From: Nitrospiraceae bacterium UBA2600
Lineage (GTDB): Bacteria > Nitrospirota > Thermodesulfovibrionia > Thermodesulfovibrionales > Thermodesulfovibrionaceae
DNA: 64,000 nt
Direction: 5' to 3'
Assembly (NCBI GenBank): GCA_002339325.1
Contig: DDKK01000031.1
Coordinates: 22,632 to 86,631 of the forward strand
The notes under the pieces are model-generated. The model had not been told where the DNA came from. It ran no database searches and was given only the letters and a program-made list of their open reading frames with translations. Both the position numbers and the translations under genes were made by a program. Below, piece by piece: positions 2,077 to 62,555 of this stretch (the first letter of the stretch is position 1; the number at the start of each line of letters is the position of its first letter).

Positions 2077-4565
2077 CCTTTAACTCTCTTACCAACAATG
2101 TAAGCTTGGCCAAGAGATATGCAGGCATCGTTGCTGGGAACATTTACGTGATAAAGAGGTTTTATGCCAAGTTTTTTTAAGGCTTTTATGGTTTCCCTTA
2201 TCAAATAGGCATTCTGGAACACTCCTCCACTTAAGCCAACTGCATCAAAGCCAAATTTTGCTCTGAAATGCTCTGTGAGTTCGAGGATTATTTTTATAAT
2301 TGTGTTGTGAAATTTCCATGAAATAAAGGAGATTCCTCGCTTACGCTCAGAATGACAAATCGACTTGGCTTCAGATTTTAAAAAATCCCTTACAATCTCT
2401 CTAATCATTAGCTTGTAGTCTATAACTAAAGCCTCTCCCTCATTGGAATTCACTAATTCAAAGGGGTAGCAGTCCCTCTCAGAGAACTCCCTACCCTCCT
2501 CTATTAGACTTTCAAGGGCTACTGCTGCCTCTGCTTCATGGGTGTTGTAATGGCATAATCCAATCAGGGAAGAGACACCATCAAAAAGTCTTCCCATACC
2601 TGAAGAAAGAGGGCTAAATTGAGAAAGTCTCTTTATTTTAAGTATTTGCCTGATTTTTTCTTCTGAAACTACTTTATAAAGAGGCAGTCTCATTATCAAA
2701 TCCATATCCTCACCGAAAGCATCGTCAATCAAAGAAAGAGCTATTCTTGAACATTCTTTTATAGCATTCTCACCTCCTGGTAAGCTGACAGGTCTTAGAT
2801 GGGCAAGTCTCTGAAAATCCTTCAAAGTGCAGTATAAAAACTCACTTCCCCAAATTGTGCCGTCTGTTCCGTATCCTGTGCCATCAAAGGCAATTCCGAA
2901 AAGCTCATCCAGTCCATGCTCTGCCATTAAGGATGCAATATGACAGTAATGATGCTGAAGAGCAAAAGAAGGAATGCCTCTTTTTTCAGCATACTCCTTT
3001 GCCCAAGCTGTTGAAAAATACAAGGGATGAAGGTCATGCCCAACTGCCGATGGCTCTGTTCGATAAACGGCTTTGAGATTGTTTAAAACCTCCTCATAAA
3101 ACTCTATTGTTTCAAGATTTTCCATATCACCTATGTGCTGGCTCATTATGGCAGAGTCTGCTTTTATAAGCGTAAAAGTATTCTTCAAGTCAGCACCAGC
3201 ACCCATAACATCGGGCAACTCCTCTTTCAATTGTATAGCCTTCGGAACAAATCCCCTTGCCCTTCTTATGAAATAGATTTTGCCTTCAAGCTCTCTTACA
3301 ACAGAGTCATCAACTCTCATAAATATATCTCTGTTGTGTATGAGAAAAGCATCTGCCACATTGCTGAGTTTTTCAAAGGCCTCTTCATTCTTTGTAATAA
3401 TAGGCTCTTCAGAGATGTTTCCACTTGTCATAACAAGGGCATCAAAGTTAGGCTGAAGACTGAAGTCCGAGGTCCGAAGGGCTGAGTTATCCTTGTAAGG
3501 CTGCGTAGTATCTGTTTTACTGTCATTCCGAGGAGCGTTAGCGACGAGGAATCCCCTCCTACCCTCCTCTGTCATTCCGAGGAGTGAAAACGACGAGGAA
3601 TCTCCTACTTTAGCTGGATAATAAAACAGCAAATAATGAAGAGGTGTGTACGGCAACATAAAGCCAAGATAGGCATTCTTAGGTGCTAATGCCTCTGGTA
3701 AATTGCACTGGGGCTTTTTTCTTAATAGCACTATAGGACGCATTGGAGAAGTAAGAATTTTTCTTTCTTCATCGCTTACAAGGCAGAATTTTTCAATAGC
3801 CTCAACGGAGGGAGACATGAGTGCAAAGGGTTTATTGCTTCTTTTTTTTCTCTTCCGCAATTCTTTAACTGCCTCTTCATTTCTTGCATCACAGCAGAGA
3901 TGAAAACCTCCGAGTCCTCTTATTGCCAAAATCTTGCCTTCTTTTATGAGCCTAATGGCTTCTGGAATTGGATTTTCAATTTCAGTTAAAGCACTACCTT
4001 CCTTTATAAAAAGCCTTACCTGAGGACCACAAACTGGGCATGCATTGGGCTGAGCATGAAATCTTCTGTTACTTGGGTCTTTGTATTCACTGAGGCATTC
4101 AGGACACATATTAAACACAGCCATTGTTGTATTAGGTCTGTCATAGGGAACTTTCATGGTAATTGTGTATCGGGGACCGCAGTTTGTGCAGTTTATGAAG
4201 GGATAGAGATATCTTCTGTCTGTAGGGGTAAAAAGCTCTCTCAGACAGTCTTCACATATTGACACATCCTCTGAAACATGTGTAAACCCTGCTTCATCAA
4301 TGCTTTTAATAATTTCGAAGGTTTTATAATTATTCGGTGGAAGTTCAGTTTTTTCAATTGAGTAAATCTTAGCAAGCGGAGGAGGATTGTTTTGAAGTTT
4401 ACTAATAAACTCTTCAACCCTTTCACCCTCAACCTCAATTGTCAAACCTTTTGAGGTATTTGTAACAAATCCTTTTAAATTAAGATTTTGTGCAAGGTTG
4501 TAAACAAATGGTCTGAAGCCTACTCCCTGAACAACTCCCTTAACTTCAATATGAAGGCGTTTCAT
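2073..4565 (-). CDS. hypF: [NiFe]-hydrogenase maturation carbamoyltransferase HypF, with two repeat-derived in-frame insertions
   Basis: GVVQGVGFRPF acylphosphatase, CxxC zinc fingers, GLGGFHL, RRARG, GDLHP, QHHYCH, FDGTGYG, SGGVFQN, NDACISLGQ. Confidence 0.97.
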   Translation of the reverse strand: MKRLHIEVKGVVQGVGFRPFVYNLAQNLNLKGFVTNTSKGLTIEVEGERVEEFISKLQNNPPPLAKIYSIEKTELPPNNYKTFEIIKSIDEAGFTHVSEDVSICEDCLRELFTPTDRRYLYPFINCTNCGPRYTITMKVPYDRPNTTMAVFNMCPECLSEYKDPSNRRFHAQPNACPVCGPQVRLFIKEGSALTEIENPIPEAIRLIKEGKILAIRGLGGFHLCCDARNEEAVKELRKRKKRSNKPFALMSPSVEAIEKFCLVSDEERKILTSPMRPIVLLRKKPQCNLPEALAPKNAYLGFMLPYTPLHYLLFYYPAKVGDSSSFSLLGMTEEGRRGFLVANAPRNDSKTDTTQPYKDNSALRTSDFSLQPNFDALVMTSGNISEEPIITKNEEAFEKLSNVADAFLIHNRDIFMRVDDSVVRELEGKIYFIRRARGFVPKAIQLKEELPDVMGAGADLKNTFTLIKADSAIMSQHIGDMENLETIEFYEEVLNNLKAVYRTEPSAVGHDLHPLYFSTAWAKEYAEKRGIPSFALQHHYCHIASLMAEHGLDELFGIAFDGTGYGTDGTIWGSEFLYCTLKDFQRLAHLRPVSLPGGENAIKECSRIALSLIDDAFGEDMDLIMRLPLYKVVSEEKIRQILKIKRLSQFSPLSSGMGRLFDGVSSLIGLCHYNTHEAEAAVALESLIEEGREFSERDCYPFELVNSNEGEALVIDYKLMIREIVRDFLKSEAKSICHSERKRGISFISWKFHNTIIKIILELTEHFRAKFGFDAVGLSGGVFQNAYLIRETIKALKKLGIKPLYHVNVPSNDACISLGQAYIVGKRVKG
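2326..2360 (-). repeat. Dispersed palindromic element copy inside hypF (reads ICHSERKRGIS)
   Basis: Minus strand ATTTGTCATTCTGAGC-GTAAGCGAG-GAATCTCCTT; first 16 and last 10 nt are identical to 62274-62309. Confidence 0.85.
3451..3486. repeat. Degenerate heptamer tandem repeat inside hypF
   Basis: GGCTGAA-GACTGAA-GTCCGAG-GTCCGAA-G-GGCTGAG. Confidence 0.6.
3521..3606 (+). repeat. Two direct copies (49-bp period) of the TGTCATTC...GAATC element inside hypF
   Basis: 3521-3553 TGTCATTCCGAGGAGCGTTAGCGACGAGGAATC; 3570-3602 TGTCATTCCGAGGAGTGAAAACGACGAGGAATC. Confidence 0.9.
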
Positions 4566-4568
4566 GTA

Positions 4569-5174
4569 TTAGAATAACATTAACTCTCTTACAGGTGAAA
4601 AGCTTTTTCTGTGAATTGGGCAGGGACCAAATTTTTTCAGAGCCTTTAGATGTTCTTTTGTGCCGTATCCCTTGTGTTTATCAAAACCATACATTGGATA
4701 GGCTTCATGATACTGCCTCATTATTCTATCCCTTGTTACTTTCGCTACAATGCTTGCAGAGGCTATTGAGGCGCTTTTCTGGTCTCCCTTTATTAGGGCT
4801 TTTTGGTTTACTTTTAATGCAGGTAACTCTACGGCATCTATTAATAAAAGCTCTATTTCTCTACCGAGATTTTCAAATGCCTCCATCATTGCACGACGAG
4901 TTGCTTCAAGAATATTAACTCTATCAATCAAATCTACATCAACAATTCCAATGCCCACAAAGGCATGATTGAGTATTTCTTGAAAAAGACTTTCTCTTTG
5001 CTCAGGACTGAGTTCCTTTGAATCCTTTATGCCTTCGACAAAAAAACTATCCCTAAAACTTACGCATGCTGCGACAACAGGTCCTGCAAGACATCCTCTT
5101 CCAGCCTCATCAATTCCTGCAATTATGCTATAACCCTGAAGCCGAAAAGACTCATCGAAGGCAAAAAGGCTCAT
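4569..5174 (-). CDS. rnhB: Ribonuclease HII
   Basis: [45 protein letters not shown]. Confidence 0.97.
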
Positions 5175-5539
5175 GCCTTCTGATAGTCAGTTTTTTCTTT
5201 AACCTTTGCCTCTTTACCTTTCTTTGTTCTCAGGTAATAAAGTTTTGCCCTTCTTACATCTCCTCTTCTTACCAGCTCAATTTTATCAATTATTGGGCTA
5301 TGAAGAGGAAATACACGTTCTACACCTACTCCAAAGGAGATTTTTCTTACTGTAAAGGTCTCCCTTAATCCTCCGCCTCTACGGGCAATTACAACTCCCT
5401 CAAATACCTGAATTCTCTCTTTGTCTCCCTCTTTAACCTTTACATGCACCTTTACGGTATCACCGGGCTTAAAATCAGGAATATCAGACTTTTTAAATCT
5501 TTCCTCTATGGCTCTAATTATTAACTGGTTCATAGGCAT
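5171..5539 (-). CDS. rplS: 50S ribosomal protein L19
   Basis: [42 protein letters not shown]. Confidence 0.98.
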
Positions 5540-6281
5540 CCTCCAGAATTTTTTTATTTATTTCAGAGCAAAGCTCTTTGAGAATCCTCATATCCTCTTT
5601 AGATAAGTTCTTCAACAAGTCAGGTCTCTTTTGAAAGGTATTTCTCAAAGCTTCCCTTCTTCTCCAGAGAGCTATTTTTTTATGGTCTCCACTTAAAAGA
5701 ATCTCGGGCACTCTCATTCCTTCAAATTCCTCAGGTCTTGTGTAATGTGGATAATCCAAAAAACCTTTCATAAAAGAATCCTCTTCTGCTGAAATCTCAT
5801 CTCCCAGTGCTCCGGGAATTAATCTCAAAATACTATCTATTATAACTAAAGCTGGCAGTTCTCCACCACTTAAAACATAATCACCAATAGAAATCTCTTC
5901 ATCAACGAGAGCTTTAATCCTTTCATCAATTCCTTCATATCTTCCACAAATAAAAGTCAATACTGCCATTTTTCTTTGAAACTCCAGAGCCACTTCTTGA
6001 TTAAATCTCCTTCCTTGAGGAGAGAGTAAAATAATCTTTCTCTTCTTTCCATCGCTTTTTATTTGCTTTATAGCATTAAAAAAAGGCTCTATCTGCATAA
6101 CCATTCCTGCACCGCCACCATAGGGATAGTCATCAACTTTTTTGTGCTTATCTGTTGTAAAATCCCTTAAATTATATACCTTCACCTGAGCAATCCCTCT
6201 TTTTAAAGCCCTTCCAACAATGCCGTGCTTCAAGTAGCATTCAATAACTTCAGGAAATATAGTCAAAACTTCAAATATCAT
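5514..6281 (-). CDS. trmD: tRNA (guanine-N1)-methyltransferase
   Basis: [47 protein letters not shown]; ATG at 6281 preferred over TTG at 6290. Confidence 0.97.
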
Positions 6282-6294
6282 AAAACTCAAAAGA

Positions 6295-6319
6295 AAAGGG
6301 CGTGATAATCACGCCCTTT
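6295..6319 (-). terminator. Intrinsic terminator-like hairpin between khpA and trmD
   Basis: AAAGGGCGTGAT / ATCACGCCCTTT inverted repeat followed on the minus strand by TCTTTT. Confidence 0.7.
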
Positions 6320-6339
6320 ATTTAATTCACTTAATTGGA

Positions 6340-6576
6340 CTATTCTAAGATTTCAAGGACACATCTTTTGCCAACTTTTGTTCCAGCAGCACCCAAGATT
6401 GTCCTCATAGCCCTTGCAGTTTTACCCTGTTTTCCAATAACCTTGCCGAGATCGCTTGGAGCAACTCTAAGTTCATAAACAGTTGTTTTTTCACCCTCAA
6501 TCTCAGTAACCTTAACCTCCTCTGGTTTGTCCACCAGTGACTTAGCCATTGTCTCAATGAGTGTCTTCATGCTCAT
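6340..6576 (-). CDS. khpA: KH-domain RNA-binding protein
   Basis: [19 protein letters not shown] motif; directly downstream of rpsP. Confidence 0.9.
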
Positions 6577-6621
6577 GTTCTAACCTCCGTGCAAAGAGTA
6601 GTAAATACCCCACTGGGTATG

Positions 6622-6858
6622 TTAAGCAGAAACTCGTTCAATTAACTTTTTAACCGTATCCGAAGGCTGTGCGCCCTTTCCAAGCCAGTAATTAACCCTT
6701 TCCATATCTAATTTGATTTCTGCCGGGTCATTTTTGGGATTATAAGTTCCAATAATCTCAATGAAAGGACCATTTCTGCGAGCCTTTGCATCAGCCACAA
6801 CTACTCTGTAAAAGGGTTTCTTTTTTGCTCCTAATCTCATTAGTCTAATTCTAACCAA
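6622..6858 (-). CDS. rpsP: 30S ribosomal protein S16
   Basis: [37 protein letters not shown]. Confidence 0.98.
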
Positions 6859-6924
6859 TTTTCAACCTCCGTGAATTTAATCCTTTAACTTTTAAATATA
6901 TTATATTAGCATTATTAAATGCAA

Positions 6925-7872
6925 CTATTTATGCAATAGAAAATTTATTTTACTGAAAATATCCATTACAATTCTATCGCTATCGTATCTCCCAGAAATA
7001 TCAAACCACAAAATGTCTCTTTCAGTTCTAAACCATGTAATTTGTCTTTTGGCATAGTTTTTTGTCCTCTTCTTGATAAGTCTTATTGCTTCCTTCAGAG
7101 GATAAATATCTGCCAAGTAACCGGCAATTTCCTTATATCCGATTGCCTGCAGAGAAGGTAAAGGAAAATTCGTCTTTCCATGTTTCTTTATAAGTCTCAA
7201 TACATTTCTAACCTCTTCAACCAATCCATTTTCGAGCATTTTATCTACTCTTTGTTCAATTAAGCTGTATAACTCCTCTCTTTCGCGAATCACTCCAACT
7301 TTTATAAATTCATAGGGAAGCGGTTTTGTAAACTTCTTCTGTAAATCACTCATCTTTGCTTTCTCTTTAAAGCAAACTTCTAATGCTCTTATTATTCTTC
7401 TCAAATCAGAGGGAGAAATTTTTTCTGCCCTATAGGGGTCAATTTCTTGTAGAATTGAGTAAAGCTTTCCAGGTTTACCCTTTTCAATCTCTAACAATTT
7501 ACTTCTTAAGTTCCAATCAGCATCGGGGCCTTCAAAAATTCCTTCAGTCATTGCCCTCATATACAGACCCGTACCACCTACGACCAACGGAATTTTATCT
7601 TTCTTTAATAATTTTTCAAATATATCACCAACTTCTTCAATATAAGCACCAGCACTAAAATAATCCCAGGGATTAACGATATCTATCATATGATGGGACA
7701 CCTCTGTTCTCTGTTGAAGGGAAGGTTTTGCTGTGCCAATGTCCATGTATCTGTAAATTTGCATTGAGTCTGCGCTTATGATTTCTGTATTGAGAAGTTT
7801 TGCCAACCCTATTGATATGTCAGTTTTTCCAGTTGCTGTGGGTCCTAGTAAAATAATGACTTTTCTTTTCAT
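6925..7872 (-). CDS. miaA: tRNA dimethylallyltransferase
   Basis: GPTATGKT, IISADSMQIYRYMDIGTAKP, VGGTGLY, QAIGYKE, YAKRQITWF. Confidence 0.97.
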   Translation of the reverse strand: MKRKVIILLGPTATGKTDISIGLAKLLNTEIISADSMQIYRYMDIGTAKPSLQQRTEVSHHMIDIVNPWDYFSAGAYIEEVGDIFEKLLKKDKIPLVVGGTGLYMRAMTEGIFEGPDADWNLRSKLLEIEKGKPGKLYSILQEIDPYRAEKISPSDLRRIIRALEVCFKEKAKMSDLQKKFTKPLPYEFIKVGVIREREELYSLIEQRVDKMLENGLVEEVRNVLRLIKKHGKTNFPLPSLQAIGYKEIAGYLADIYPLKEAIRLIKKRTKNYAKRQITWFRTERDILWFDISGRYDSDRIVMDIFSKINFLLHK

Positions 7873-7937
7873 AGCTTAAGATATTATTTTTAATTATAAA
7901 CTGTTTAATTTGAAAAAATGAGGAAATTAAAGTCCCC

Positions 7938-7966
7938 TTGAAAATTATTTAAATATTTTATATTAT
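7938..7966 (+). promoter_or_regulatory. Putative sigma70 promoter for the stator cluster
   Basis: TTGAAA-N17-TATTAT, 9 nt upstream of the ATG at 7976. Confidence 0.5.
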
Positions 7967-7975
7967 TGTGAAAGT

Positions 7976-8737
7976 ATGGACCTGATTGCCATAATAGGCA
8001 TCTTGATTGGTTTAGGAGCAGTTGTAGCCGGCAACATTGCAGAAGGTGGCACAACCGCCCATCTAATCCAATTGGCAGCTGCCATAATAGTCTTCGGTGG
8101 AACCATAGGAGCTGTTCTTTTAAGTTTTACTACAAAAGATTTAATTTATGCATTTTTATGCCTTAAATTCGCATTTCTAAAAAGAAAAGTTAATATAGAC
8201 GAAACCGTTGAAACAATACTTGACCTTCTTGTAATAGCACGAAGAAAGGGAATTTTAGCCTTGCAGGAAGAGTTACCAAAAATACAAGACCCTTTGCTGA
8301 GAAGAGGTATTAATTACATAATAGACGGAATTTCTCCGGCTATAATAAAAGAAGCCTTATATCAGGAAGTTTACGCCTATGAGGATATACTGAGAAGAGC
8401 TGCTAAAGTTTATGACTCTGCAGGAGGTTATGCACCCACAATAGGAATAATTGGTGCCATTTTGGGTCTAATACATGTTCTTAAAAACGTTGCTGAACCC
8501 TCAAAAATCGGTATTGGTATAGCAACAGCTTTCGTGGCCACAATCTACGGTGTTGGCTCTGCCAATCTCATATTTATTCCTGTATCAAAAAGGATTATAA
8601 ATAAAATGGAAGAAGAAATTCTTCTTATGGAACTAATTATTGAAGGGATTCTTGGCATAGAAGCAGGGGTTAATCCGTATTTTTTAAGAGCGAAACTTGA
8701 GGCATTCATTAAAGACAGACAAAGAGAGAGAATATGA
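7976..8737 (+). CDS. motA: Flagellar stator A subunit (short MotA/MotC/PomA type)
   Basis: TM pattern, IIVFGGTIGA, ARRKGILAL, APTIGIIGAILGLI, FVATIYGV. Confidence 0.9.
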   Translation: MDLIAIIGILIGLGAVVAGNIAEGGTTAHLIQLAAAIIVFGGTIGAVLLSFTTKDLIYAFLCLKFAFLKRKVNIDETVETILDLLVIARRKGILALQEELPKIQDPLLRRGINYIIDGISPAIIKEALYQEVYAYEDILRRAAKVYDSAGGYAPTIGIIGAILGLIHVLKNVAEPSKIGIGIATAFVATIYGVGSANLIFIPVSKRIINKMEEEILLMELIIEGILGIEAGVNPYFLRAKLEAFIKDRQRERI

Positions 8738-9381
8738 TAACAAGAAAGAAAAATAATAAAAACGACCACGATGAAAATATTCACAGATGGCTAATTTCTT
8801 ACTCCGACTTTCTTACATTACTTTTTACTTTTTTTGTAGCCCTATATGCTTTGTCAAATTTAGACTTAATAAAAGCAGAAAAAATGACTACTTCACTACG
8901 AAAAGTCTTCAAAGTAATAGATGAACCAATATCATTTGAAGAAGACAGAAACAAAGCAGTAATTGAAGATTTGAAAAAAATCCTAAATGACATATCAGGT
9001 GTCACAATTAAATCCGACGCCAGAGGTATTGTAATTTCATTACCTGATTCTTTGCTCTTTAATCTTGGTTCTGCTGAAATAAGACCAGAGGCAAAACAAA
9101 CGTTGGTAAAAATATCCGAAAAATTCAAAGAGATACCAGGGAAAATAATAATAGAGGGACACACAGACAGTCTGCCTGTTTCTCCAAATTCACTTTATAA
9201 ATCAAATTGGGAGCTCTCTTCAGCAAGAGCATCGTCGGTACTTCATTTTCTCCTTGAGCAAGGACTTTCTCCGGATAGATTTACCATTGCTGGCTACGGC
9301 GAATACCGGCCGATTGCACCGAATGATACGGAGGAAGGAAGAGCAAAAAACAGAAGAGTTGAACTTATAATACAGAGATAA
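8734..9381 (+). CDS. motB: Flagellar stator B subunit, OmpA-like domain
   Basis: RWLISYSDFLTLL with ion-binding Asp; EGHTD, NWELSSARA, NRRVE. Confidence 0.9.
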   Translation: MITRKKNNKNDHDENIHRWLISYSDFLTLLFTFFVALYALSNLDLIKAEKMTTSLRKVFKVIDEPISFEEDRNKAVIEDLKKILNDISGVTIKSDARGIVISLPDSLLFNLGSAEIRPEAKQTLVKISEKFKEIPGKIIIEGHTDSLPVSPNSLYKSNWELSSARASSVLHFLLEQGLSPDRFTIAGYGEYRPIAPNDTEEGRAKNRRVELIIQR

Positions 9382-9395
9382 TTATAATCAAAAAT

Positions 9396-9935
9396 ATGAG
9401 CGAGGAGAGGTATAGGATAATGAGAGAGTACTCAAGAGTAGACGCAACAATTCCTTTAGGAATCACCGTAATAGGGGAAGATGAGAAGGATATGAGAAAG
9501 GCGAGAATAGCAGGTGACATGACCTTTGGAAATGTGCCTGCTGAAGAACCAACAGACCGAGCGCTGGCGGAATGGTTAAAAATAATAAACTCAAAGCTTG
9601 ACTATTTAATAAATCTCTGGAGTTTTCACCAAGAGGGTTTCTCATGTCTCCCCATTTATGAAGTTAACATAAGCGGTGGCGGAATGAGTTTCAATTCCGA
9701 TGTATGTTACGAAGAAGGGAAAGTTCTTGAGCTAAAAACTGTTCTTGAGAGTCCTTCTTCCATTGCTTTATACTTATACGGTGAAGTTGTAAAGTGTGAA
9801 AAGTTGAAAGATAAGGATAAATTCAGAGTGGCTTTAAAATTTATAAATATCGATGAAGACATCAGAGATCATATAATTAGATTTGTATTTCATAGACAGA
9901 GACAGATTCTCAGACAAAAGAGGGAGATAAAATGA
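9396..9935 (+). CDS. PilZ-domain c-di-GMP receptor
   Basis: REYSR (RxxxR) and NISGGG (D/NxSxxG) signatures. Confidence 0.85.
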   Translation: MSEERYRIMREYSRVDATIPLGITVIGEDEKDMRKARIAGDMTFGNVPAEEPTDRALAEWLKIINSKLDYLINLWSFHQEGFSCLPIYEVNISGGGMSFNSDVCYEEGKVLELKTVLESPSSIALYLYGEVVKCEKLKDKDKFRVALKFINIDEDIRDHIIRFVFHRQRQILRQKREIK

Positions 9936-21958: not shown

Positions 21959-23203
21959 ATGAAAAAATTATTCGTTACCCTACTCTTTTTGTTGCTTAAT
22001 TTCCTTTATGCCCCAATAAATTATGCAGAAGAAGAGAATAAGGCAATTACTTTAAAACAAGATGAGAAAAAGGAGATAATTTTTTCAGGCAGTGAAGATT
22101 TTACGCTTCTTCCTGAGACAAAAGAAAATTTTATAAATAAAATCGAAAAACACATAAATCTTTTCTCCGAAAGACTGAAAGGAAAATTCTCTCTATGGCT
22201 ATCACGTTCAGGACGCTACATAGAGATAATGAAGGAAATCTTAATTGAAAAAGGACTTCCCGAAGAACTCGTCTACCTTCCATTAATAGAGAGCGGATTT
22301 AATGTTAATGCCCGTTCTCCTGCTAAAGCAGTAGGTCCGTGGCAGTTTATAGAAAGCACAGCAAAGAGATACGGCCTGATAGTAGACTGGTGGAGAGATG
22401 AAAGAAAAGACCCTATAAAGTCAACTATTGCTGCAGCGAACTACTTAAATGACCTGTATAAAATGTTTGGTGATTGGTCATTAGCTCTCGCCGCTTACAA
22501 CGCAGGCGAAGGCAGAATATACAGAGCAGTAAATAAAATAGGTGAAAACGATTACTGGTCTCTCTTAAATACGAGATATATTCCAAAAGAAACTCAAAAC
22601 TATGTTCCTAAATACATAGCAGCTATAACAATAGCAAAACAGCCAGAGAATTTCGGTTTTAGTAATATTAAAGAACATGAGCCTCTAAATTATGAAGAAG
22701 TCACCATTCCTTCTCCAACTGATATTGATTTAATAGCGAAATGTGCAGAGACTGACTTAGAAACTATAAAGGAGTTAAATCCTGAACTGAAAAGATGGTC
22801 AACACCAATGAATGTTAAGGAATACAAAATAAGAATTCCTGCAGACAAAAAAGAAATTTTTATATCGAATTTTGAAAAGATTCCTCCTGAAAAGAGATTT
22901 AGTTACGACACTTATATAACACAAAAAGGAGACAATATCACAAAAATAGTTCAAAAAACTAAATTGACTTCCAAAGTTATATATGAATTAAACGGAACAG
23001 AAATATTTAAAAACTTAAAACCAGGCACTAAAATAATGATTCCGCCTCATGATAAATTTGTTCTTACCAAAGAAGATAAATACTCGGAGAAAAAAATTAC
23101 AAGAAAGTCCAGCAAAGCATCTTCAAAGATAGCAAAGAATAATCAGAACAAAAAGACTTCCAGTAAAGAGAAAATAGTTAGAAAAGTTAAAGCAAGAAAA
23201 TAA
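21959..23203 (+). CDS. MltD-like lytic transglycosylase with LysM
   Basis: [37 protein letters not shown]. Confidence 0.9.
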
Positions 23204-53877: not shown

Positions 53878-53900
53878 AACAACACCTCCTAAAATTTATT

Positions 53901-54087: not shown

Positions 54088-54137
54088 TTGACAAAATGAA
54101 AAATTTATGCTATCTTCTATTAACATTAAAAGTTAAT
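54088..54137 (+). promoter_or_regulatory. Sigma70 promoter of the hydrogenase operon plus palindromic operator-like site
   Basis: TTGACA-N17-TATCTT with TGn; ATTAAC-N7-GTTAAT at 54119-54137. Confidence 0.65.
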
Positions 54138-54273
54138 CTGTATAAACTCAACTAACCCGCCAGGAAGGCTTACAAGGGCTGAAGCCCTAAAAAATTCAAC
54201 TGAACCTGCCTGCCCGAAGGCTGGCTAAAAGCTAAGAAAGCAAAAAACTAAAAAATTTTTAGGAGGTTTTGCT

Positions 54274-55098: not shown

Positions 55099-55116
55099 TT
55101 TCTGAGGAGGATAAAT

Positions 55117-56889
55117 ATGGCTAACGTAACAATCACAATTGATGGACAAAAGGTCACTGTGCCAGAGGGAACTACTATACTTAAAGCATCTGAACAGGTA
55201 GGCGTGAAAATTCCAACTCTCTGTTTTCTTGACCATGTCGGATTAAGGCATATCAAACACGATGTAGGAGCTTGCAGGATCTGTGTAGTAGAAGTAGAGG
55301 GAATGAGAGATTTTGTTTCATCCTGTAATACACCTGTTCAAGAAGGCATGGTCATAAGAACCAATACTCCTAAGATTTTAGCTGCCCGAAAGCTAAATCT
55401 TGAAATGATGCTGAGTGAACATCATCTTGACTGTCCTACCTGTCCAAAAAACGGTGCCTGCGAACTTCAGGCAGTTTGTGCAGAGCTTAATGTAAGGCAG
55501 ATAAGACCGCAGGGTGAGAAAAAAGATTTACCAATTGATGACTCCTCTCCATCAATAGTTAGAAATCCTAACAAGTGTATCATATGTCAGCGATGTATAA
55601 CTGCTTGCAAGGTTCTTCAGTCCGTTGACGTTCTTGAACTTTACGGAAATGGCTATGATGCGGTGGTGCGTCCTCTCGGTGGAAAGCCAATTATTGAAAC
55701 TCAATGTGTTGCCTGCGGACAGTGTGCCCTTGTTTGTCCCACTGCTGCTATTGTTGAAAGAGATGATACATGGAAAGTCTGGGAAGCAATTGCTGACCCG
55801 AAGAAACATGTAGTTGTCCAAACCGCACCGGCAACCCACGTAACAATAGGTGAAGCCTTTGGCTTACCTGTTGGAACTGATATTACAGGTAAAATGGTCA
55901 GTGCACTCAAAAGAATTGGATTTGATGCAGTCTTTGATACAAACTGGTCTGCAGACCTCACCATAATGGAAGAGGGATACGAGCTTATCCACAGAATTAA
56001 AAACGGAGGAGTGCTGCCTCAGTTTACATCATGTTCTCCTGGATGGATTAAGTTTCTTGAGGAGTTTTACCCTGACCTGATTCCTCATATTTCAAGTTGT
56101 AAGTCTCCTCAACAAATGCTCGGTCCAATAGCAAAAACCTATTATGCCCAGAAAAAAGGCATTTCTCCTGAAGATATCTTTGTTGTCTCAATAATGCCAT
56201 GCACAGCAAAAAAATATGAAGCAGCCAGACCTGAGATGAACGCAGCGGCAAAATTCTGGAAAAATCCCAATATCTCAAGGGATGTAGATGTAGTTCTTAC
56301 ATCAAGAGAACTAATAAGAATGATACGTGAAGCAGGGATTGATTTTGCCAAACTGCCAGACTCAGCCTATGACCCTGTTATGGGAGAAGGAACAGGTGCA
56401 GCCCAGATATTTGGAGCAACAGGTGGAGTTATGGAAGCCGCCTTAAGGACAGCCTATGAGGTGGTGACAGGCAAAACCCTTCAGAAGCTTGACTTTGAAG
56501 ATGTAAGAGGAATGAAAGATATTAAAGAAGCTTCGGTAAGCATGAATGGATTAACAGTGAAAGTTCTCGTTGCTCACTCCCTTGGTGCAGCAAGGCAACT
56601 TATGGAGAAAGTAAGAGCAGGTGAGCTCAAGGATTATCATTTTATTGAAGTTATGACCTGTCCTGGGGGATGTATTGGTGGAGGTGGACAGCCTATTCCA
56701 ACAACTGTTGAAAAGAGGGAGATGCGAATTGCTGGAATTTATGAAAGAGACAAAAAGATGCCTCTAAGAAAAAGTCATGAAAATCCTGAAATTCAGGCAA
56801 TTTACAAAGAATTCCTTAAGGAACCTCTCGGTCATCTATCTCATGAGTTACTTCACACTCATTACACACCGAGAGGAAAAAATAACTAA
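55117..56889 (+). CDS. hydA: [FeFe]-hydrogenase catalytic subunit, NuoG-like N-terminus, no signal peptide
   Basis: GACRICVVE..SC [2Fe-2S], HHLDCPTC..C, two CxxCxxC, H-cluster TSCSPGW, MPCTAKKYE, EVMTCPGGCIGGGGQP; fused small-subunit tail. Confidence 0.97.
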   Translation: MANVTITIDGQKVTVPEGTTILKASEQVGVKIPTLCFLDHVGLRHIKHDVGACRICVVEVEGMRDFVSSCNTPVQEGMVIRTNTPKILAARKLNLEMMLSEHHLDCPTCPKNGACELQAVCAELNVRQIRPQGEKKDLPIDDSSPSIVRNPNKCIICQRCITACKVLQSVDVLELYGNGYDAVVRPLGGKPIIETQCVACGQCALVCPTAAIVERDDTWKVWEAIADPKKHVVVQTAPATHVTIGEAFGLPVGTDITGKMVSALKRIGFDAVFDTNWSADLTIMEEGYELIHRIKNGGVLPQFTSCSPGWIKFLEEFYPDLIPHISSCKSPQQMLGPIAKTYYAQKKGISPEDIFVVSIMPCTAKKYEAARPEMNAAAKFWKNPNISRDVDVVLTSRELIRMIREAGIDFAKLPDSAYDPVMGEGTGAAQIFGATGGVMEAALRTAYEVVTGKTLQKLDFEDVRGMKDIKEASVSMNGLTVKVLVAHSLGAARQLMEKVRAGELKDYHFIEVMTCPGGCIGGGGQPIPTTVEKREMRIAGIYERDKKMPLRKSHENPEIQAIYKEFLKEPLGHLSHELLHTHYTPRGKNN

Positions 56890-56904
56890 CAAAAGGGGGA
56901 TTGT

Positions 56905-58302
56905 ATGGTAAGAAAAGTAAACACATTCAAGGGTAACGGTACAGTGAAGTCACAGACAGGAACTTACAGAGCAGGAGAGATAAGAGGAATAATCAAAATC
57001 AACGAGGGTAACTGTGTTGGCTGTCATACCTGTAGCAGTGTTTGTCCTGCAGGAGCAGTAAAAGGCTCCTTTGGAGACAAACACAGCATTGACCTTGACA
57101 GATGTATCAACTGTGGGCAGTGCCTACTTAACTGTCCCTTTGGTGCAGTTGAACAGATGAGCTTTGTTGATGTGGTAATGGAGAAACTCAAAGACAAAAA
57201 AACAAAAGTTGTTGCAATTATTGCTCCAGCTGTGAGAGTTGCCATTGGAGAAGAGTTTGGTGCTGAGCCAGGCACACTTACAGTTGGAAGACTCTGGGCT
57301 GCTTTAGAAAAAGCAGGTTTTCTAATTTATGACAACAATTTTGCAGCAGATCAAACAATTCTTGAAGAAGGCACAGAGTTACTTGCAAAAGTAGCAGCCC
57401 ATGCAGGGCTTAAACAGTTACCTGTTGAGCTCTGGGGGAAAAAAATAACTCTTGATATCAAAGAGTTCTCTCATCATCCCCTACCCCAGTTTACTTCCTG
57501 CTGTCCCGCGTGGGTGAGATATGTAGAGGTTTTCTATCCAAAACTTATTCCCTACCTTTCTTCAGCCAAATCACCCCAGCAGATGGCAGGAGCAACAGCA
57601 AAGACCTACGGTGCAAAGCTTTGGGGAGCAAAGCCTGAAAATATTTTCACCGTTGGAGTAATGCCTTGTACAGCAAAAATCTTTGAAGCCTCCCGTCCAG
57701 AATTTGATTCTGCGGCAAAATATTTAAAAAAGTCAGGTATGAAAGATGTCGATGCAGTTCTAACAACAAGAGACCTTGCAGAACTTCTAAAGCGTATGAA
57801 CATAGACCCAATGAAAATGTCTGAGGATGCAAGCAGAAAACCTGAGATGTTTAAATTTTACTCAGGTGGTGCTACCATATTTGGCACAAGCGGTGGAGTT
57901 ATGGAGGCAGCTGTAAGATTTGCATTCCATATGCTTTCTGGCCAGTCTCCTCAGGCAATGAGTCCTAAGTGGGATTTTGAAGGAGTGCGAGGATTTACAA
58001 AACCTGTTGCATCAGCAACAATTTCCGTTCCTCTAAAAGAAGAATATCAGAAAGCTCTCAAAACAAAAGAACTTCAGGTTAAGGTCTGTGTAGTAAATGG
58101 TATAGGAACAGATGGGGCACATCTTAAGCCAATATTGGAAGATGTCTTGGCAGGTAAAAGCCCCTATCACTTCATAGAGGTTATGAACTGTCCTGGTGGC
58201 TGTATTAACGGAGGTGGACAGCCAGTTCATCCAATTGAACTTTCTCTCTTAGACCAGCTTTTTTATTCTCTTGTAAAAAGCTTTGAAGGAGGTAAACTAT
58301 GA
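56905..58302 (+). CDS. hydA: Second [FeFe]-hydrogenase large subunit (Desulfovibrio-type, 2x[4Fe-4S])
   Basis: CVGCHTCSSVCP, CINCGQCLLNCP, TSCCPAW, MPCTAKIFE, EVMNCPGGCINGGGQP. Confidence 0.96.
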   Translation: MVRKVNTFKGNGTVKSQTGTYRAGEIRGIIKINEGNCVGCHTCSSVCPAGAVKGSFGDKHSIDLDRCINCGQCLLNCPFGAVEQMSFVDVVMEKLKDKKTKVVAIIAPAVRVAIGEEFGAEPGTLTVGRLWAALEKAGFLIYDNNFAADQTILEEGTELLAKVAAHAGLKQLPVELWGKKITLDIKEFSHHPLPQFTSCCPAWVRYVEVFYPKLIPYLSSAKSPQQMAGATAKTYGAKLWGAKPENIFTVGVMPCTAKIFEASRPEFDSAAKYLKKSGMKDVDAVLTTRDLAELLKRMNIDPMKMSEDASRKPEMFKFYSGGATIFGTSGGVMEAAVRFAFHMLSGQSPQAMSPKWDFEGVRGFTKPVASATISVPLKEEYQKALKTKELQVKVCVVNGIGTDGAHLKPILEDVLAGKSPYHFIEVMNCPGGCINGGGQPVHPIELSLLDQLFYSLVKSFEGGKL

Positions 58303-58625
58303 AAATCAGAAAGCTTACAAGAAGGTCTTTTCTAAAATTAGCAGGTGCTGGAATTATCAGCCTTTCCTTTACAAAGCCATCTTTTGCCGGTGATACAGCG
58401 GAGAAAAACTTTTTTGAGACAAAGGTCGGAAAAGAAAGACTTAAACTCATAAAGGCAAGACAGTCCGGGCAGTATAAGGATGATGTTATATCAAGAGAAA
58501 AATTCAAAATGGCCGCATCCCATGAAAACCCGATGATAAAAAGGTTTTACTCTGAGTTTGCTCATCATCCTTTAAGTGAAGTAAGTGAAGCATTGTTGCA
58601 TACGCATTACAAGGCAAGGGTATAG
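58299..58625 (+). CDS. hydB: [FeFe]-hydrogenase small subunit with Tat signal
   Basis: LTRRSFLK twin-arginine motif; SHENPMIKRFY..HPL...LLHTHY. Confidence 0.9.
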   Translation: MKIRKLTRRSFLKLAGAGIISLSFTKPSFAGDTAEKNFFETKVGKERLKLIKARQSGQYKDDVISREKFKMAASHENPMIKRFYSEFAHHPLSEVSEALLHTHYKARV

Positions 58626-58653
58626 TATTAGCCCGGGCTTAAAGGAGTTTAAA

Positions 58654-58935
58654 ATGGTGGTTTATTATAGTCTCGGCAATAGAAAATATTGGTTTACAAC
58701 AATTGAAAGGCTAATCCAAATCGCAGAAGTTCTCTCAAAGAAAAGCTATCTTCTTCATAACACTGAGGCTGTAAAGACTACCTATAATGATTGGTTCATT
58801 CTTGATGAAAACTACATAAGCAAAGTAAGCGAAATAATTGAAGAATGCGCAAGCGAGATTAAAGATGAGGAGCTTTTATGTGACCTCATGGCTTTGAAAG
58901 AAGTTTTTGACGGCGGAAGCGTAGTTTTCGGATAA
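58654..58935 (+). CDS. Hypothetical 93-aa protein in the hydrogenase operon
   Basis: AAGGAG SD at 58642 and ATG at 58654 (MVVYYSLG...); same strand as neighbours. Confidence 0.65.
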   Translation: MVVYYSLGNRKYWFTTIERLIQIAEVLSKKSYLLHNTEAVKTTYNDWFILDENYISKVSEIIEECASEIKDEELLCDLMALKEVFDGGSVVFG

Positions 58936-59025
58936 AAATGCCTTATCCGAGGGAGAAACTCCTGAGGAGAGGGTTTATAAAAGTTAAATAAAACCTGAGA
59001 CAGAGGAAAAATCTGAGGTCAAGGG

Positions 59026-59286
59026 ATGAATAGAAAGATTGGAATTGTTGGAATAATCGTAGCTGAAAGAAATAAAAATGCTCCTTTAGTAAACCAAATC
59101 CTCTCTGAGCATGCAGAGATAATTCTTGCCAGAATGGGAATACCTCAAAAGGAGACAGACACTGGCTTTATCTCACTTTTTGTAGAAGGAAACACAGACC
59201 GAATAGGCTCTCTTACAGGAAAGCTTGGAATGATAAAAGGTGTAACTGTAAAAAGCCTTCTTATCTCTGAAAAGGAGAAGAAATGA
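59026..59286 (+). CDS. TM1266-family putative iron-only hydrogenase system regulator
   Basis: IGIVGIIV, VNQILSEHAEIILARMGIP, LTGKLGMIKGVTVK; context. Confidence 0.85.
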   Translation: MNRKIGIVGIIVAERNKNAPLVNQILSEHAEIILARMGIPQKETDTGFISLFVEGNTDRIGSLTGKLGMIKGVTVKSLLISEKEKK

Positions 59287-60701
59287 TACGCATAGAGAGG
59301 GACTCTCTTGGTGAGCTTTCTATTCCGAAGGATGCTTACTACGGCATTCATGCATTAAGAGCAAAGGAAAACTTTTCTGTAACGGGACAACCACCTCACA
59401 GGGAGCTCATATGGGCTATGGCTATTGTTAAGAAAGCATGTGCATGGGTTAACAGAGAGATTGGAATGCTTGAGGATAACAAGGCAGACTCAATTCTTAA
59501 AGCCTGCGATGAGCTGGCAGTAGGTAACTTAGATGGACAGATTATCGTTGATGCTCTTTCAGGTGGAGCAGGCACAACAATTAATATGAATATTAACGAG
59601 GTTATTGCCAACAGAGCCCTTGAGCTTATGGGATTTGAAAAGGGTAGCTACGATGTAATTCATCCTCTCTTTCACATAAATCTAAATCAGTCAACGAACG
59701 ATGTTTTCCCCACAGCTGTTAAAACTGCCATTGTAAGGCTTCTGAGAGAGCTCGTAGATGAGGTTGCTTTACTTCAGGGTGAGTTTCAAAAGAAAGAAAA
59801 GGAGTATGCAAAAATTCTTAAGGTAGGAAGAACTGAACTTCAGGATGCTGTTCCAGTTACAGTTGGGCAGGAGTTTTCTGCCTGGGCAGAGGCTTTAAAC
59901 AGAGACTGGTGGAGGCTGAATAAGGCAGTAGAAAGGGTTCGTCAGGTCAATCTCGGTGGAACTGCTGTAGGCACAGGACTTAACTGTCCCAAGATTTTCA
60001 TTGATATGGCAATAGAGAAACTTCGGGAATTTACAGGGCTTCCTCTTGCAAAGGCGGAGAATCTCTTTGAGGCAACTCAGAATACAGATACATTTTCAGA
60101 GGCATCGGGATATCTTAAAACTTTAGCTTCAGACCTTATAAAAATTGCTTCAGATTTAAGGTTCTTAAGCTCTGGGCCAAAAGCAGGAATAGGTGAGTTA
60201 AGGCTTCCTGCTGTTCAGGTTGGCTCATCAATAATGCCTGGAAAGGTAAATCCCGTTATTCCTGAGATGGTTACACAGGTTGGAATAAAAGTGATTGCAT
60301 CAGACCATGCAGTAAGCTTTGCCTGTAGCATGGGGAATCTTGAGCTTAACCCGTTTTTACCACTTGTAGCACACGAACTTATTGGTTCTTTAAAGATGCT
60401 TAAGAGCTGTTCAACACTTTTTAGGGAGAGATGTATCTCAGGAATAACCGTTGATGAAGCAAGATGTAGAGAGCTTTTTGATAAGAGTTCCTGTATCATA
60501 ACTGCCTTTTCTCCCTATCTTGGCTATGAAACCTGTGCAGAGATATACAAAGAGGCAGTAAGCAAAGGCAGAAAAGTTGAAGAAATCCTGATTGAGAGAG
60601 GATTTTTCACAAAGGAAGAGATTGAGAGCATAACTCAACCACAGGAATTAACAACTCCCGGCTTTGCCGGAATTAAACATTTAAGGAGGCTTTTAAAATG
60701 A
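59283..60701 (+). CDS. aspA: Aspartate ammonia-lyase
   Basis: RIERDSLGE, GGAGTT.NMN.NEV, NQSTNDVFPT, GRTELQDA, GSSIMPGKVNPV. Confidence 0.92.
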   Translation: MIRIERDSLGELSIPKDAYYGIHALRAKENFSVTGQPPHRELIWAMAIVKKACAWVNREIGMLEDNKADSILKACDELAVGNLDGQIIVDALSGGAGTTINMNINEVIANRALELMGFEKGSYDVIHPLFHINLNQSTNDVFPTAVKTAIVRLLRELVDEVALLQGEFQKKEKEYAKILKVGRTELQDAVPVTVGQEFSAWAEALNRDWWRLNKAVERVRQVNLGGTAVGTGLNCPKIFIDMAIEKLREFTGLPLAKAENLFEATQNTDTFSEASGYLKTLASDLIKIASDLRFLSSGPKAGIGELRLPAVQVGSSIMPGKVNPVIPEMVTQVGIKVIASDHAVSFACSMGNLELNPFLPLVAHELIGSLKMLKSCSTLFRERCISGITVDEARCRELFDKSSCIITAFSPYLGYETCAEIYKEAVSKGRKVEEILIERGFFTKEEIESITQPQELTTPGFAGIKHLRRLLK

Positions 60702-62203
60702 AAGCTGTTTTAGCAAAAGAGGAAAAAAACTGGATAAACAGCGTGATTAAGGAAGAAGAGATAGAGAAATATATGGAAGACGGAAGGGACTTCATAAATG
60801 ATGAGGAAATCTGGGAGAAACTAAAGCAAAATCAGAATCCAGAACCATCCCGAATATGGGATATACTTCAGAAATCCCTTTCAATTGAAACACTTCTTCC
60901 CGATGAGACAGCAGCTTTGCTTAATCTTAAAGACCCGGAACTCTGGCAAGAGGTTTTTGATGTAGCAGCAAAGGTAAAGAAAAAGGTTTATGACAACAGA
61001 ATTGTCACATTCGCACCTCTTTACTGCGGAAATCTATGTGTGAATAACTGCGTTTACTGTGGTTTCAGAAGAGACAATCATGTGATTAAAAGAAAGGTGC
61101 TAACTCTTGAAGAAGTAAAAAGAGAGGCAGAGGTGCTTGCTGGTGAGATAGGACATAAAAGACTTATTGTTGTTTACGGTGAGCATCCTGCAACTGGAGC
61201 TCATTACATAAGAGACACGATAGAAACTATTTACTCTGTCAAGGTAATGACAAAGAACGGATACGGTCAGATAAGAAGGGTTAATGTGAATGCCGCACCA
61301 ATGAGCATAGATGAGTTAAAGATGCTTAAGGAAGTTGGAATCGGCACATATCAGGTTTTTCAGGAGACTTATCATCATGACACATACGCAAAGCTTCATC
61401 CTAAGGGAACAATTAAACATCACTATCAGTGGAGGCTTTACTGTCATCACAGAGCACTTGAAGCGGGAGTTGATGATGTGGCATTGGGAGTGCTTTTTGG
61501 ACTTTATGACTGGAGATTTGAGGTTATGGGGTTACTTTATCATGCAAGGGAGCTTGAGAAACGGTTCGGAATTGGTCCACATACAATTTCTTTCCCACGG
61601 CTTGAGCCTGCAGCAAACACTCCCTTTGTGCAGGAGACAAGATATAAAGTTTCCGATGAGGATTTCAAAAAAATCATTGCAGTGATAAGACTTTCTGTTC
61701 CCTACACTGGTATGATTCTTACTGCCCGAGAGCCTGCTCACATAAGAAGAGAAATCATTGCTTCAGGAATGATAACCCAGACAGATGCATCCACAAAAAT
61801 AGGAATAGGAGCATACTCTGACAGATACACAGAACAGGAGCTTGAGCGACAGCAGTTTGAGATTGGAGACTCCCGTAGCCTTGACGAAGTAATCAGAGAA
61901 CTTGCAGAGATGGGCTTTATTACAAGCTTTTGCACAGCCGGTTATAGATGTGGAAGAACAGGAGATAGAATAATGAGTTTGCTTAAATCAGGAAAGGAGG
62001 CGATATTTTGTAAACTCAATGCAGTGCTTACTTTCAGAGAATGGCTTGATGACTTTGCCTCGGAACAGACAAAGGAAGCAGGAGAGAAAGTTATTCAGAA
62101 GGAGCTTGACGAGTTAAAGGCAAAAGTGCCTCATAAAGTTTACAACAAGCTCATTGAATACTACGGGAGGATTAAAAATGGAGAAAGAGACATATATTTC
62201 TAA
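60698..62203 (+). CDS. hydG: [FeFe]-hydrogenase maturase HydG
   Basis: FAPLYCGNLCVNNCVYCGF, FQETYH, GPHTISFPR, SFCTAGYRCGRTG. Confidence 0.96.
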   Translation: MKAVLAKEEKNWINSVIKEEEIEKYMEDGRDFINDEEIWEKLKQNQNPEPSRIWDILQKSLSIETLLPDETAALLNLKDPELWQEVFDVAAKVKKKVYDNRIVTFAPLYCGNLCVNNCVYCGFRRDNHVIKRKVLTLEEVKREAEVLAGEIGHKRLIVVYGEHPATGAHYIRDTIETIYSVKVMTKNGYGQIRRVNVNAAPMSIDELKMLKEVGIGTYQVFQETYHHDTYAKLHPKGTIKHHYQWRLYCHHRALEAGVDDVALGVLFGLYDWRFEVMGLLYHARELEKRFGIGPHTISFPRLEPAANTPFVQETRYKVSDEDFKKIIAVIRLSVPYTGMILTAREPAHIRREIIASGMITQTDASTKIGIGAYSDRYTEQELERQQFEIGDSRSLDEVIRELAEMGFITSFCTAGYRCGRTGDRIMSLLKSGKEAIFCKLNAVLTFREWLDDFASEQTKEAGEKVIQKELDELKAKVPHKVYNKLIEYYGRIKNGERDIYF

Positions 62204-62555
62204 GGAGACTCTTCATTCTGAGCCATCCCCTTTCTGTCACTCTGAGCCTTCCTTCAGTCATTCTGAACCATCCATTTGTCATTCTGAGCCGAAGGCTAAG
62301 AATCTCCTTCTTGAATTAAACAAAATAGCAGAGTTTGTCAAAGAAAAATACAATACCCACATTTGGTTTGTAGAGATAATGGGAAAGAGACACTCATACA
62401 TAGCCGGACACAAAGAAGACTCATTTCTTCCACCAGAGTTAATTTATATCAATGACAGATACGCTGCTGTCTCCAATGAATGGGAGAGAATCACCGAGAA
62501 AGATGAAATCATATCAACCATAAAAATGCTGCTTTCAAAGGAGACAATCCCATGA
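62178..62555 (+). CDS. Hypothetical 125-aa protein with N-terminal (C)HSEP repeat array
   Basis: GGAGG SD at 62166, ATG 62178; overlaps hydG end and hydF start (ATGA). Confidence 0.7.
   Translation: MEKETYISKETLHSEPSPFCHSEPSFSHSEPSICHSEPKAKNLLLELNKIAEFVKEKYNTHIWFVEIMGKRHSYIAGHKEDSFLPPELIYINDRYAAVSNEWERITEKDEIISTIKMLLSKETIP
62211..62309 (+). repeat. Tandem array of TGTCATTCTGAGCC units ending in one complete element
   Basis: Units at 62211, 62235, 62256, 62277 (periods 24/21/21); the last continues GAAGGCTAAGAATCTCCTT. Confidence 0.9.

Follow-up and report, generated by a model that had tools for sequence, protein, structure and literature searches.

A 64-kb stretch of DNA from Nitrospiraceae bacterium UBA2600 (contig DDKK01000031.1; the whole stretch is termed the window) contains a short TGTCATTC…GAATCTCC hairpin repeat, which is present in-frame within two Thermodesulfovibrio genes. 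One encodes the carbamoyltransferase HypF, and the other a small protein between HydG and HydF. The copies of this repeat are probably members of the pan-bacterial superfamily of CGTC/TGTC-tagged REPs, now described as NTS/Ssn-related motifs (SRMs). The identity of the motif, the covariation of its hairpin, filled and empty sites in relatives, dispersal over the genome and adjacency to GIY-YIG nuclease genes in other organisms are all observed.

Copies of the repeat in the window

Direct reading of the sequence yields four full units of the general form TGTCATTCYGAG-N(8-16)-GAATCYCC and three partial ones. These units and their host genes are as follows.

2073-4565, minus strand: host gene 1, carbamoyltransferase HypF, 830 aa as against ~775 aa in insertion-free relatives
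2328-2357, minus strand: copy c1, TGTCATTCTGAGCGTAAGCGAGGAATCTCC; covariance model 45.5 bits
2328..2360, minus strand: copy c1 with the preceding ATT, 33-nt in-frame insert, sense, at HypF site 2; peptide ICHSERKRGIS
3450..3617, minus strand: whole HypF site-1 insertion, ~55 extra residues at the YrdC-like/Kae1-like junction; c3, c2 and ~95 nt of filler
3521-3556, plus strand: copy c2, TGTCATTCCGAGGAGCGTTAGCGACGAGGAATCCCC; 42.8 bits; double tandem-G·A stem; antisense to HypF, site 1
3570-3605, plus strand: copy c3, TGTCATTCCGAGGAGTGAAAACGACGAGGAATCTCC; 45.5 bits; antisense to HypF
62178-62555, plus strand: host gene 2, 125-aa protein, between HydG (60698-62203) and HydF (62552-63823)
62212..62276, plus strand: three tandem 5'-half units, [TC][GT]TCAYTCTGARCC + TCC + 3-6 nt; sense in host gene 2; encode (L/C/S)HSEPS repeats
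62277-62307, plus strand: copy c4, TGTCATTCTGAGCCGAAGGCTAAGAATCTCC; 45.6 bits; sense in the 125-aa open reading frame (ORF); peptide CHSEPKAKNL

Every copy in the window lies inside an ORF and is free of stop codons, regardless of its orientation, and no copy is found between genes in the 64 kb. The number and places of the copies agree with those given in a preliminary description of this DNA. The 16 + 10 identical nucleotides that it reported between copies 60 kb apart are those of c1 and c4, which have ATTTGTCATTCTGAGC (16 nt) and GAATCTCCTT (10 nt) in common. Copy c3 is the head-to-tail partner of c2, 49 nt downstream (repeat family D6, 85% identity), and the two antisense copies encode GDSSSFSLLGMT…RRGFLVANAPRND. 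The 5'-half copies (TCAYTCTGAR) start at 62212, 62236 and 62257, and the half-unit array is detected by Tandem Repeats Finder at 62213-62290 with a period of 21, 3.6 copies and 77% matches. A half unit resembles a full one without the distal hairpin (TGTCAYTCTGAGCC + TCC…), which fits a deletion across the hairpin.

When a loose 12-mer is searched with one mismatch allowed, 5 matches are obtained against 1.57 expected, and 5 matches are reached by 2 of 100 shuffles, which is weakly above chance. The covariance model R1 assigns 42.8-45.6 bits (rough E ~1e-14) to c1-c4 and 10.4 bits to the next best site in the window; this model was built on 48 copies from other genomes and the four window copies, so that the match of the window copies is partly by construction. 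The window copies also agree with the exact-pattern consensus found in other phyla. Rfam at gathering thresholds detects one tRNA only in the window, and no described RNA family spans the copies. A literature search with exact motif strings gave unrelated matches only, and the motif is absent from the supplementary tables of one of the two key papers (PMC3733652, PMC11893778).

Hairpin structure and filled and empty sites

The tag TGTC is located at the 5' end and is unpaired in every predicted fold. It is present in 4 of 4 window copies and in 137 of 137 copies from other genomes, for which it was part of the search pattern. The stem that follows has 5 bp (ATTCY/RGAAT) and an AT…AT start; of the 9 positions that it covers, two or four are conserved G·A mismatches. 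These mismatches form a conserved two-by-two internal loop, 5'-GA/5'-GA (tandem G·A), of which the c2/c3 type has two. The inner stem has 2-8 bp of entirely free sequence and is closed by a loop of 3-4 nt, which is often GAA or GNRA-like. The unpaired 3' tail CYCC is CTCC or CCCC after GAAT in all copies.

In 89 of 93 distinct copies (50 T:A and 39 C:G, with 4 mismatched), the Y position has a complementary partner, which was unconstrained, and the inner stems still pair despite completely different sequences. When the copies are aligned (alignment A3), 95.9% of the cells pair, as against 10-54% with a slid partner, and the covariation score on this alignment is reached by 0 of 500 shuffles. 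The 3' CGA of the G·A loop is conserved in at least 90%, though it was left free in the search pattern.

Filled and empty forms of the same sites are found when HypF is compared between relatives. At site 2, the window is longer than the empty gene of P0005/L121 (~85% identical) by exactly 33 nt, which consist of ATT and the 30-nt unit. In the HMMER alignment with the solved HypF structure 3VTH, a gap of 11 residues stands opposite the site-2 peptide ICHSERKRGIS. At site 1, query residues 315-375 correspond to ~5 residues of 3VTH. This site contains two intact head-to-tail units in the window, a single decayed antisense unit in P0004 and P0005, and a 12-residue linker only, with no recognisable copy, in P0008/L123. 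The ~95-nt filler of site 1 occurs once in the genome. At window 3425-3520 (KTDTTQPYKDNSALRTSDFS) it contains short direct repeats, TCCGAGG/TCCGAAGG and CTGAAG/CTGAAG. The occupancy of site 2 is patchy in a neighbour-joining tree of HypF: the unit is intact in the window clade, decayed in several others and missing in the sister pair P0005/P0006. This pattern may reflect either one old insertion followed by losses or repeated insertions.

A third HypF loop, at about window residues 709/710 ('ELVNSNE' to 'GEALVIDY'), is empty in the window and filled in P0022, P0023 and P0025. Eight model matches are present in the 920-aa HypF of P0023 (L315 9983-12745) and four in that of P0022 (L314 10001-12484), all of them in-frame. 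Across one genus, the number of copies in the three insertion-tolerant loops of HypF ranges from 0 to 8, which makes this protein a recurrent hot spot. The link to hydrogenase maturation that had been raised for the two hosts is not supported, because HypF recurs through these three loops and the leucyl-tRNA synthetase LeuRS is also a host.

In the small ORF, the start MEKETxISK, which is upstream of the insertion, is conserved in 24 of 24 homologues. The homologue P0124/L127, which is 87% identical over the aligned part, is shorter by 78 nt, in which the half-unit array and the 5' half of c4 are located, and retains GAGCCGAAAGCAAAGAAT, the decayed 3' half of c4. The whole insert is missing from more distant homologues. 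P0121 and P0122 (95-96% identical) contain 5 units, one half unit more than the window, and an oil-facility metatranscriptome contig, flagged 'RNA?', spans c4 into the ORF without a joint and has a shorter half-unit array. The number of half units differs between close relatives, and therefore the array changes by slippage-like steps. Six contigs of a hot-spring metatranscriptome (runs X26 and X27; window 62275-62312) carry a c4-type unit with unrelated flanks. Because these contigs contain them, c4-type copies are transcribed elsewhere. The insert junctions show identities of at most 3 nt (TCC, GAG), which are not separable from microhomology at such divergence.

If the segments were native functional parts of HypF and the small protein, such as flexible linkers or metal-binding CHSE motifs, the likeness of their DNA would be convergent or due to chance. 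Cys and His do occur in the peptides, and each host is a maturation factor of metallo-enzymes. This explanation is scarcely tenable. The segments are missing from orthologues 81-87% identical, and these empty sites refute it in practice. They are also missing from distant orthologues and from the solved structures 3VTH and 4G9I. The DNA motif gives unrelated peptides in its two orientations, and it is intergenic in many phyla, with model E-values of ~1e-14. To judge from these alignments, the segments are insertions and not native protein sequence, and they would be passengers that lengthen loops rather than functional modules. The units that survive in genes are all free of stops, have a length divisible by three and are located at loops or termini.

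The earlier proposal that the repeat adds peptide segments to proteins is supported by the empty sites of close orthologues and by distant orthologues that are without the peptides. Of the two outcomes that had been named beforehand as contradicting the description, a lack of further genomic copies and conservation of the peptides in distant orthologues, neither was observed. The element had also been called active. This word is not supported, because the copies are common to relatives 90-94% identical and the sole recent change seen is the slippage-like change in half-unit number. Turnover is evident over the time that separates species, and no sign of present-day insertion is seen in the compared sequences.

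Distribution of the repeat and neighbouring genes

In an isolate-type assembly (run X6), in which one contig of 283 kb spans the entire window, ~15 further c2-type copies are detected on at least 8 contigs, with a depth ratio of ~21-fold. This result bears out the description of a dispersed, non-autonomous hairpin repeat. Read mapping on c1 and c4 gave no further genomic copies, either because these subtypes are unique or because 30-31 nt are too short for the aligner.

The exact motif is present in at least 14 phylum-level groups (one genome per species; at least 120 loci). The hosts listed include Chloroflexota, Acidobacteriota, Bacillota, Bacteroidota, Patescibacteria, Verrucomicrobiota, Planctomycetota, Armatimonadota, Pseudomonadota (including Rickettsiales), Nitrospirota, Cloacimonadota, Calditrichota and Latescibacterota, and the commonest form among the matches listed is TGTCATTCTGAGCGAAGCGAAGAATCTCC. 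A metagenome scan for the c2 subtype alone gave at least 120 stretches, and most of these contigs have a G+C content of 50-63%. In IMG/VR, 56 viral or proviral contigs (L250-L305) contain the exact motif, some of them in 2-4 copies; a small hidden Markov model detected no GIY-YIG ORF in these 56 contigs.

The copies at the 120 loci of other phyla are depleted in long open frames (28-42%, as against 70-88% for random control positions), and therefore the family is mainly intergenic. In Thermodesulfovibrio-type contigs also, most copies are intergenic. L125 contains a tail-to-tail dimer between genes, beside an IS3 orfA. L155, which shows 72-83% nucleotide identity to L127, contains about a dozen model matches, all intergenic except one pair in LeuRS. 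L219 contains five intergenic units, a tail-to-tail dimer among them, and L315 seven intergenic model matches. The LeuRS pair of L155 (4950-5044) is a head-to-head pair that adds 26 residues in-frame (…SSIGMTEEGHAEPAFYCHSEPERSEGKESP…). LeuRS of L127 is without these 26 aa and has a decayed remnant, SDSEQRQS, at this site. The preference for coding sequences that the preliminary description had proposed from the window is thus not observed in the genus. Upstream of the L125 dimer, at 21990-22045, further degenerate hairpin-like pieces (…GACCCTTCGCCTACGGCTTAGGGC…, TTCGCTTGGAATAACA) are found, which suggests a decaying cluster beside the IS3 orfA.

The intergenic location of most copies elsewhere, often as tail-to-tail pairs, would also be expected if the repeats were kept for a DNA or RNA function of the host, such as a signal for transformation or restriction, a recombination hot spot, or stabilisation or termination of mRNA, the intragenic copies being tolerated or selected. 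The extreme conservation of the sequence across phyla, the transcription of copies in the hot-spring metatranscriptome, and the modulation of natural transformation by NTS/Ssn in Neisseria point in the same direction. Against it, the intragenic copies are found in both orientations to the mRNA, which argues against a role of the RNA, and copies are decayed in some lineages and lost in others. We consider a host function rather unlikely; it would complement the assignment to the SRM superfamily and not oppose it.

Small GIY-YIG nuclease genes are found near copies in other organisms, at seven unrelated loci. They are single-domain PF01541 genes of ~96-107 aa, and their likeness to the cd10448-type nucleases is judged from PF01541, length and single-domain architecture. 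At 3 of the 120 genome loci (L005, L031 and L049), a single-domain PF01541 ORF of ~100 aa is located at most 200 nt from a unit. L049 also contains a pseudogene and 7 exact pattern matches within ~2 kb. In the metagenomic locus L229, a 96-aa GIY-YIG gene is tightly flanked on both sides by c2-type units. Positions 1-1040 of L229 form a composite tandem repeat of ~200 nt, in which each unit includes a tail-to-tail hairpin pair and one is occupied by the GIY-YIG gene. At the GIY-YIG gene of L244, the nearest model matches of at least 20 bits are ~1 kb away, and only weak ones (16-17 bits) overlap.

In a reciprocal test, Ssn-like genes were picked by protein homology alone, and 2 of 3 are flanked on both sides by R1 matches of 21-35 bits. 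The two flanked genes are those of L306 (metagenome-assembled genome of Desulfobacterales) and L308/L311 (gut metagenomes). The third, in L307 (Nitrosomonas, 2803-3464), is located between hsdS and hsdR in a type I restriction-modification operon and has a weak match only. The adjacency of copies and nuclease genes is in line with the association described in the literature, which it widens to include the tandem-G·A subfamily. In L306 (257-4329), the Ssn-like gene with its flanking hairpins lies between LeuRS and LptE. These two genes are also adjacent in Thermodesulfovibrio, where LeuRS contains in-frame units; this may be a coincidence.

A RAYT/Y1 or GIY-YIG gene flanked by copies had been named as something to look for. 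The GIY-YIG part of this expectation was borne out in other organisms, and no recurrent transposase family was found at the 120 loci. An all-against-all BLAST of 3,705 ORFs from the 120 loci, examined for a recurrent neighbour family, gave generic families (ABC transporters, response regulators) and the three GIY-YIG genes. Genes for four-helix-bundle proteins (23S rRNA IVS-protein-like) at L022, L053 and L107 were dropped, as they are 0.5-2 kb from units.

It is therefore highly unlikely that the repeat is a REP-like miniature element moved by a tyrosine transposase of the IS200/IS605 type (RAYT), an enzyme whose recognition site is a hairpin with a 5' tetranucleotide. Its architecture of tag plus hairpin is formally like that of GTAG REPs, and PMC3733652 leaves it possible that other transposases mobilise CGTC repeats. 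However, the tag is TGTC and not GTAG, no transposase family recurs among the 3,705 ORFs, and no RAYT gene with flanking CGTC repeats was found in PMC3733652. The window is without a transposase, and the single nearby case, the IS3 orfA of L125, looks incidental.

The window itself is AT-rich (G+C 30-42%), and its nearest HypF relatives, which are 90-94% identical, are named Thermodesulfovibrio sp. The remaining scanned ORFs of the window are housekeeping genes. No candidate for a transposase, a GIY-YIG nuclease or another nuclease is found among the scanned ORFs, as had been stated earlier of mobilising enzymes. A K+ channel gene (Ion_trans_2 + TrkA_N + TrkA_C) at 342-1362 on the minus strand is broken up into a pair of ORFs that overlap (901-1362 and 342-926), and its counterpart in the relatives L121 and L125 is a single 340-aa gene. 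The split represents either a frameshift (pseudogene) or a sequencing error. Two paralogous genes for the [FeFe]-hydrogenase large subunit adjoin each other (55117-56889 and 56905-58302) and contain stretches of 75-78% identity (families D1 and D3), which is ordinary paralogy.

Relation to known families and possible origin of the copies

CGTC-tagged REPs have a tag that is often TGTC and also CCTC, a stem of 8-9 bp starting with AT, a loop of 4-5 nt and a short unpaired tail with the consensus CCA (PMC3733652). Inverted dimers are common and head-to-tail dimers negligible; intragenic copies are in-frame and add 10-30 (up to 80) residues, in tRNA synthetases among others; and these REPs are associated with no transposase (PMC3733652). 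The window repeat is similar to them as a palindromic unit of 30-36 nt with a 5' TGTC tag, an AT-start stem, a short loop and a short 3' tail. It is also similar in its many dispersed copies, its inverted dimers, its in-frame intragenic copies and the lack of an associated transposase. It differs from them in its host, because Nitrospirota (Thermodesulfovibrio) is outside the five phyla listed in PMC3733652. It also differs in its stem, which is broken by one or two tandem G·A loops instead of forming a perfect helix of 8-9 bp, in its tail (CYCC instead of CCA), and in the head-to-tail and half-unit arrays inside genes. Neisseria dRS3 and the Rickettsia palindromic elements RPE-4 and RPE-6 are members with a CGTC or TGTC tag (PMC3733652; Di Nocera, De Gregorio & Rocco 2013, BMC Genomics 14:522). 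That paper is in agreement with the likeness to CGTC/TGTC-tagged REPs and Rickettsia elements that had been noted before.

According to PMC11893778 (Chenal 2025, Nat Commun 16:2388), NTS is CGTCATTCCCGCG-MAV-GCGGGAATCYRG, which the GIY-YIG nuclease SsnA binds solely as single-stranded DNA and cleaves some nucleotides upstream. Binding and cutting by Ssn are described there for the Neisseria and Wolbachia homologues, and NTS/Ssn modulates natural transformation in Neisseria. SRMs flank ssn genes, and 71% of the regions of ssn homologues contain at least one SRM. The window copies share (C/T)GTCATTCC…GGAATC(C/T) with NTS, and an oriented, conserved 5' flank. L229, L306, L308, L005, L031 and L049 likewise contain small single-domain GIY-YIG genes with copies. 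The accessible part of PMC11893778 differs from the present case in containing no discussion of intragenic in-frame copies. The repeat family, its in-frame residence in genes and its connection with Ssn are already known. The Nitrospirota host, the tandem-G·A stem, the gap in the published SRM pattern and the HypF hot spot are modestly new.

Rickettsia palindromic elements (RPEs) are the classic case of selfish DNA that resides in-frame in protein genes. The window repeat resembles them as a stop-free, in-frame insert at tolerant sites of housekeeping genes, in both orientations and with empty sites in relatives. In contrast to the window repeat, RPE-1 is longer (~100-150 bp) and unrelated in sequence, and its retention in mRNA and protein has been shown, as against one 'RNA?' contig here. 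Rickettsia is an obligate intracellular alphaproteobacterium, whereas the present host is a free-living thermophile. GTAG REPs with their RAYTs are similar in the short hairpin, the unpaired tetranucleotide tag, the high copy number and the intergenic preference, but differ in the tag and in their association with a Y1 transposase instead of a GIY-YIG nuclease. Miniature inverted-repeat transposable elements have terminal inverted repeats derived from an insertion sequence and a target-site duplication; the unit here is a single hairpin of 30-36 nt.

Several observations weigh against the assignment of the window copies to the SRM superfamily and a role of Ssn. When folded with DNA nearest-neighbour parameters, c1-c3 fold no better than shuffles (z -0.4 to +1.1) and c4 alone is significant (z = -2.6). 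The hairpin therefore rests on covariation, not on computed stability. The published SRM pattern, HGTCWYN(0-2)YYVSBRHN(0-5)WNVSBRGN(0-2)RNCYNB, matches Neisseria NTS but gives 0 matches in the window; it misses c1-c4, because of their GAG…CGA internal loop, and the commonest pan-bacterial form. Neither the window nor ~170 kb of DNA from related Thermodesulfovibrio contigs contains a GIY-YIG gene. Four assemblies that hold window DNA gave no match to the L229 nuclease at 80% DNA identity or more, which is an insensitive test, and only the repeat parts of the L229 region were matched in them. At the protein level, searches for an Ssn homologue gave more than 5,000 matches, and the best 120 of these include no Thermodesulfovibrio entry. 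A GIY-YIG neighbour is present at ~2% of the sampled SRM loci, which is weak by itself; such a figure is expected, because there are hundreds of copies per gene. Finally, Ssn is a nuclease and not a transposase.

By analogy with Neisseria, Wolbachia and other Ssn systems, Ssn may act on the copies in this organism as well. The TGTC strand would fold into the hairpin when it becomes single-stranded during replication, repair or DNA uptake, and a small single-domain GIY-YIG nuclease (Ssn) would bind the hairpin and nick the DNA a few nucleotides upstream. Repair of the nick by template switching, gene conversion from other copies or slippage would be the probable source of new copies, of head-to-tail and half-unit arrays, and of deletions. 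Hot spots would be explained if a site that already contains a copy is more liable to such events. A copy in a gene would be kept only where its length is divisible by 3 nt, it has no stop and its site is a tolerant surface loop. Such a filter would leave the window copies where they are found: the junction of the HypF domains, a loop of HypF and the N-terminal tail of the small protein.

A more far-reaching reading, which we regard as speculative and rather improbable, is that the tandem-G·A form (TGTCATTCYGAG…CGARGAATCYCC) is the most widespread SRM branch and that the Thermodesulfovibrio hot spots are footprints of repeat multiplication via Ssn nicking and repair. The footprints meant are the three HypF loops with 0 to 8 copies, the head-to-tail arrays, and the 5'-half arrays that vary between near-identical strains. 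A nick made by Ssn upstream of a hairpin already in place, once repaired by template switching or gene conversion, would then give rise to additional copies at that spot.

The basic published picture is unchanged by these findings. For annotation, units of 30-36 nt explain length variation and odd low-complexity peptides (CHSE…, SFRG…, …LRMT, …AQND) in conserved proteins, and in many phyla they are also a cause of broken assemblies. A very common subfamily, that with tandem G·A loops, is not covered by the SRM definition as published. The hypF gene, with 0 to 8 copies across one genus, is a natural series for gain, decay, loss and protein tolerance. If the footprint reading is true, the spread of CGTC REPs/SRMs, which has been a question since 2013, would be testable in one gene.

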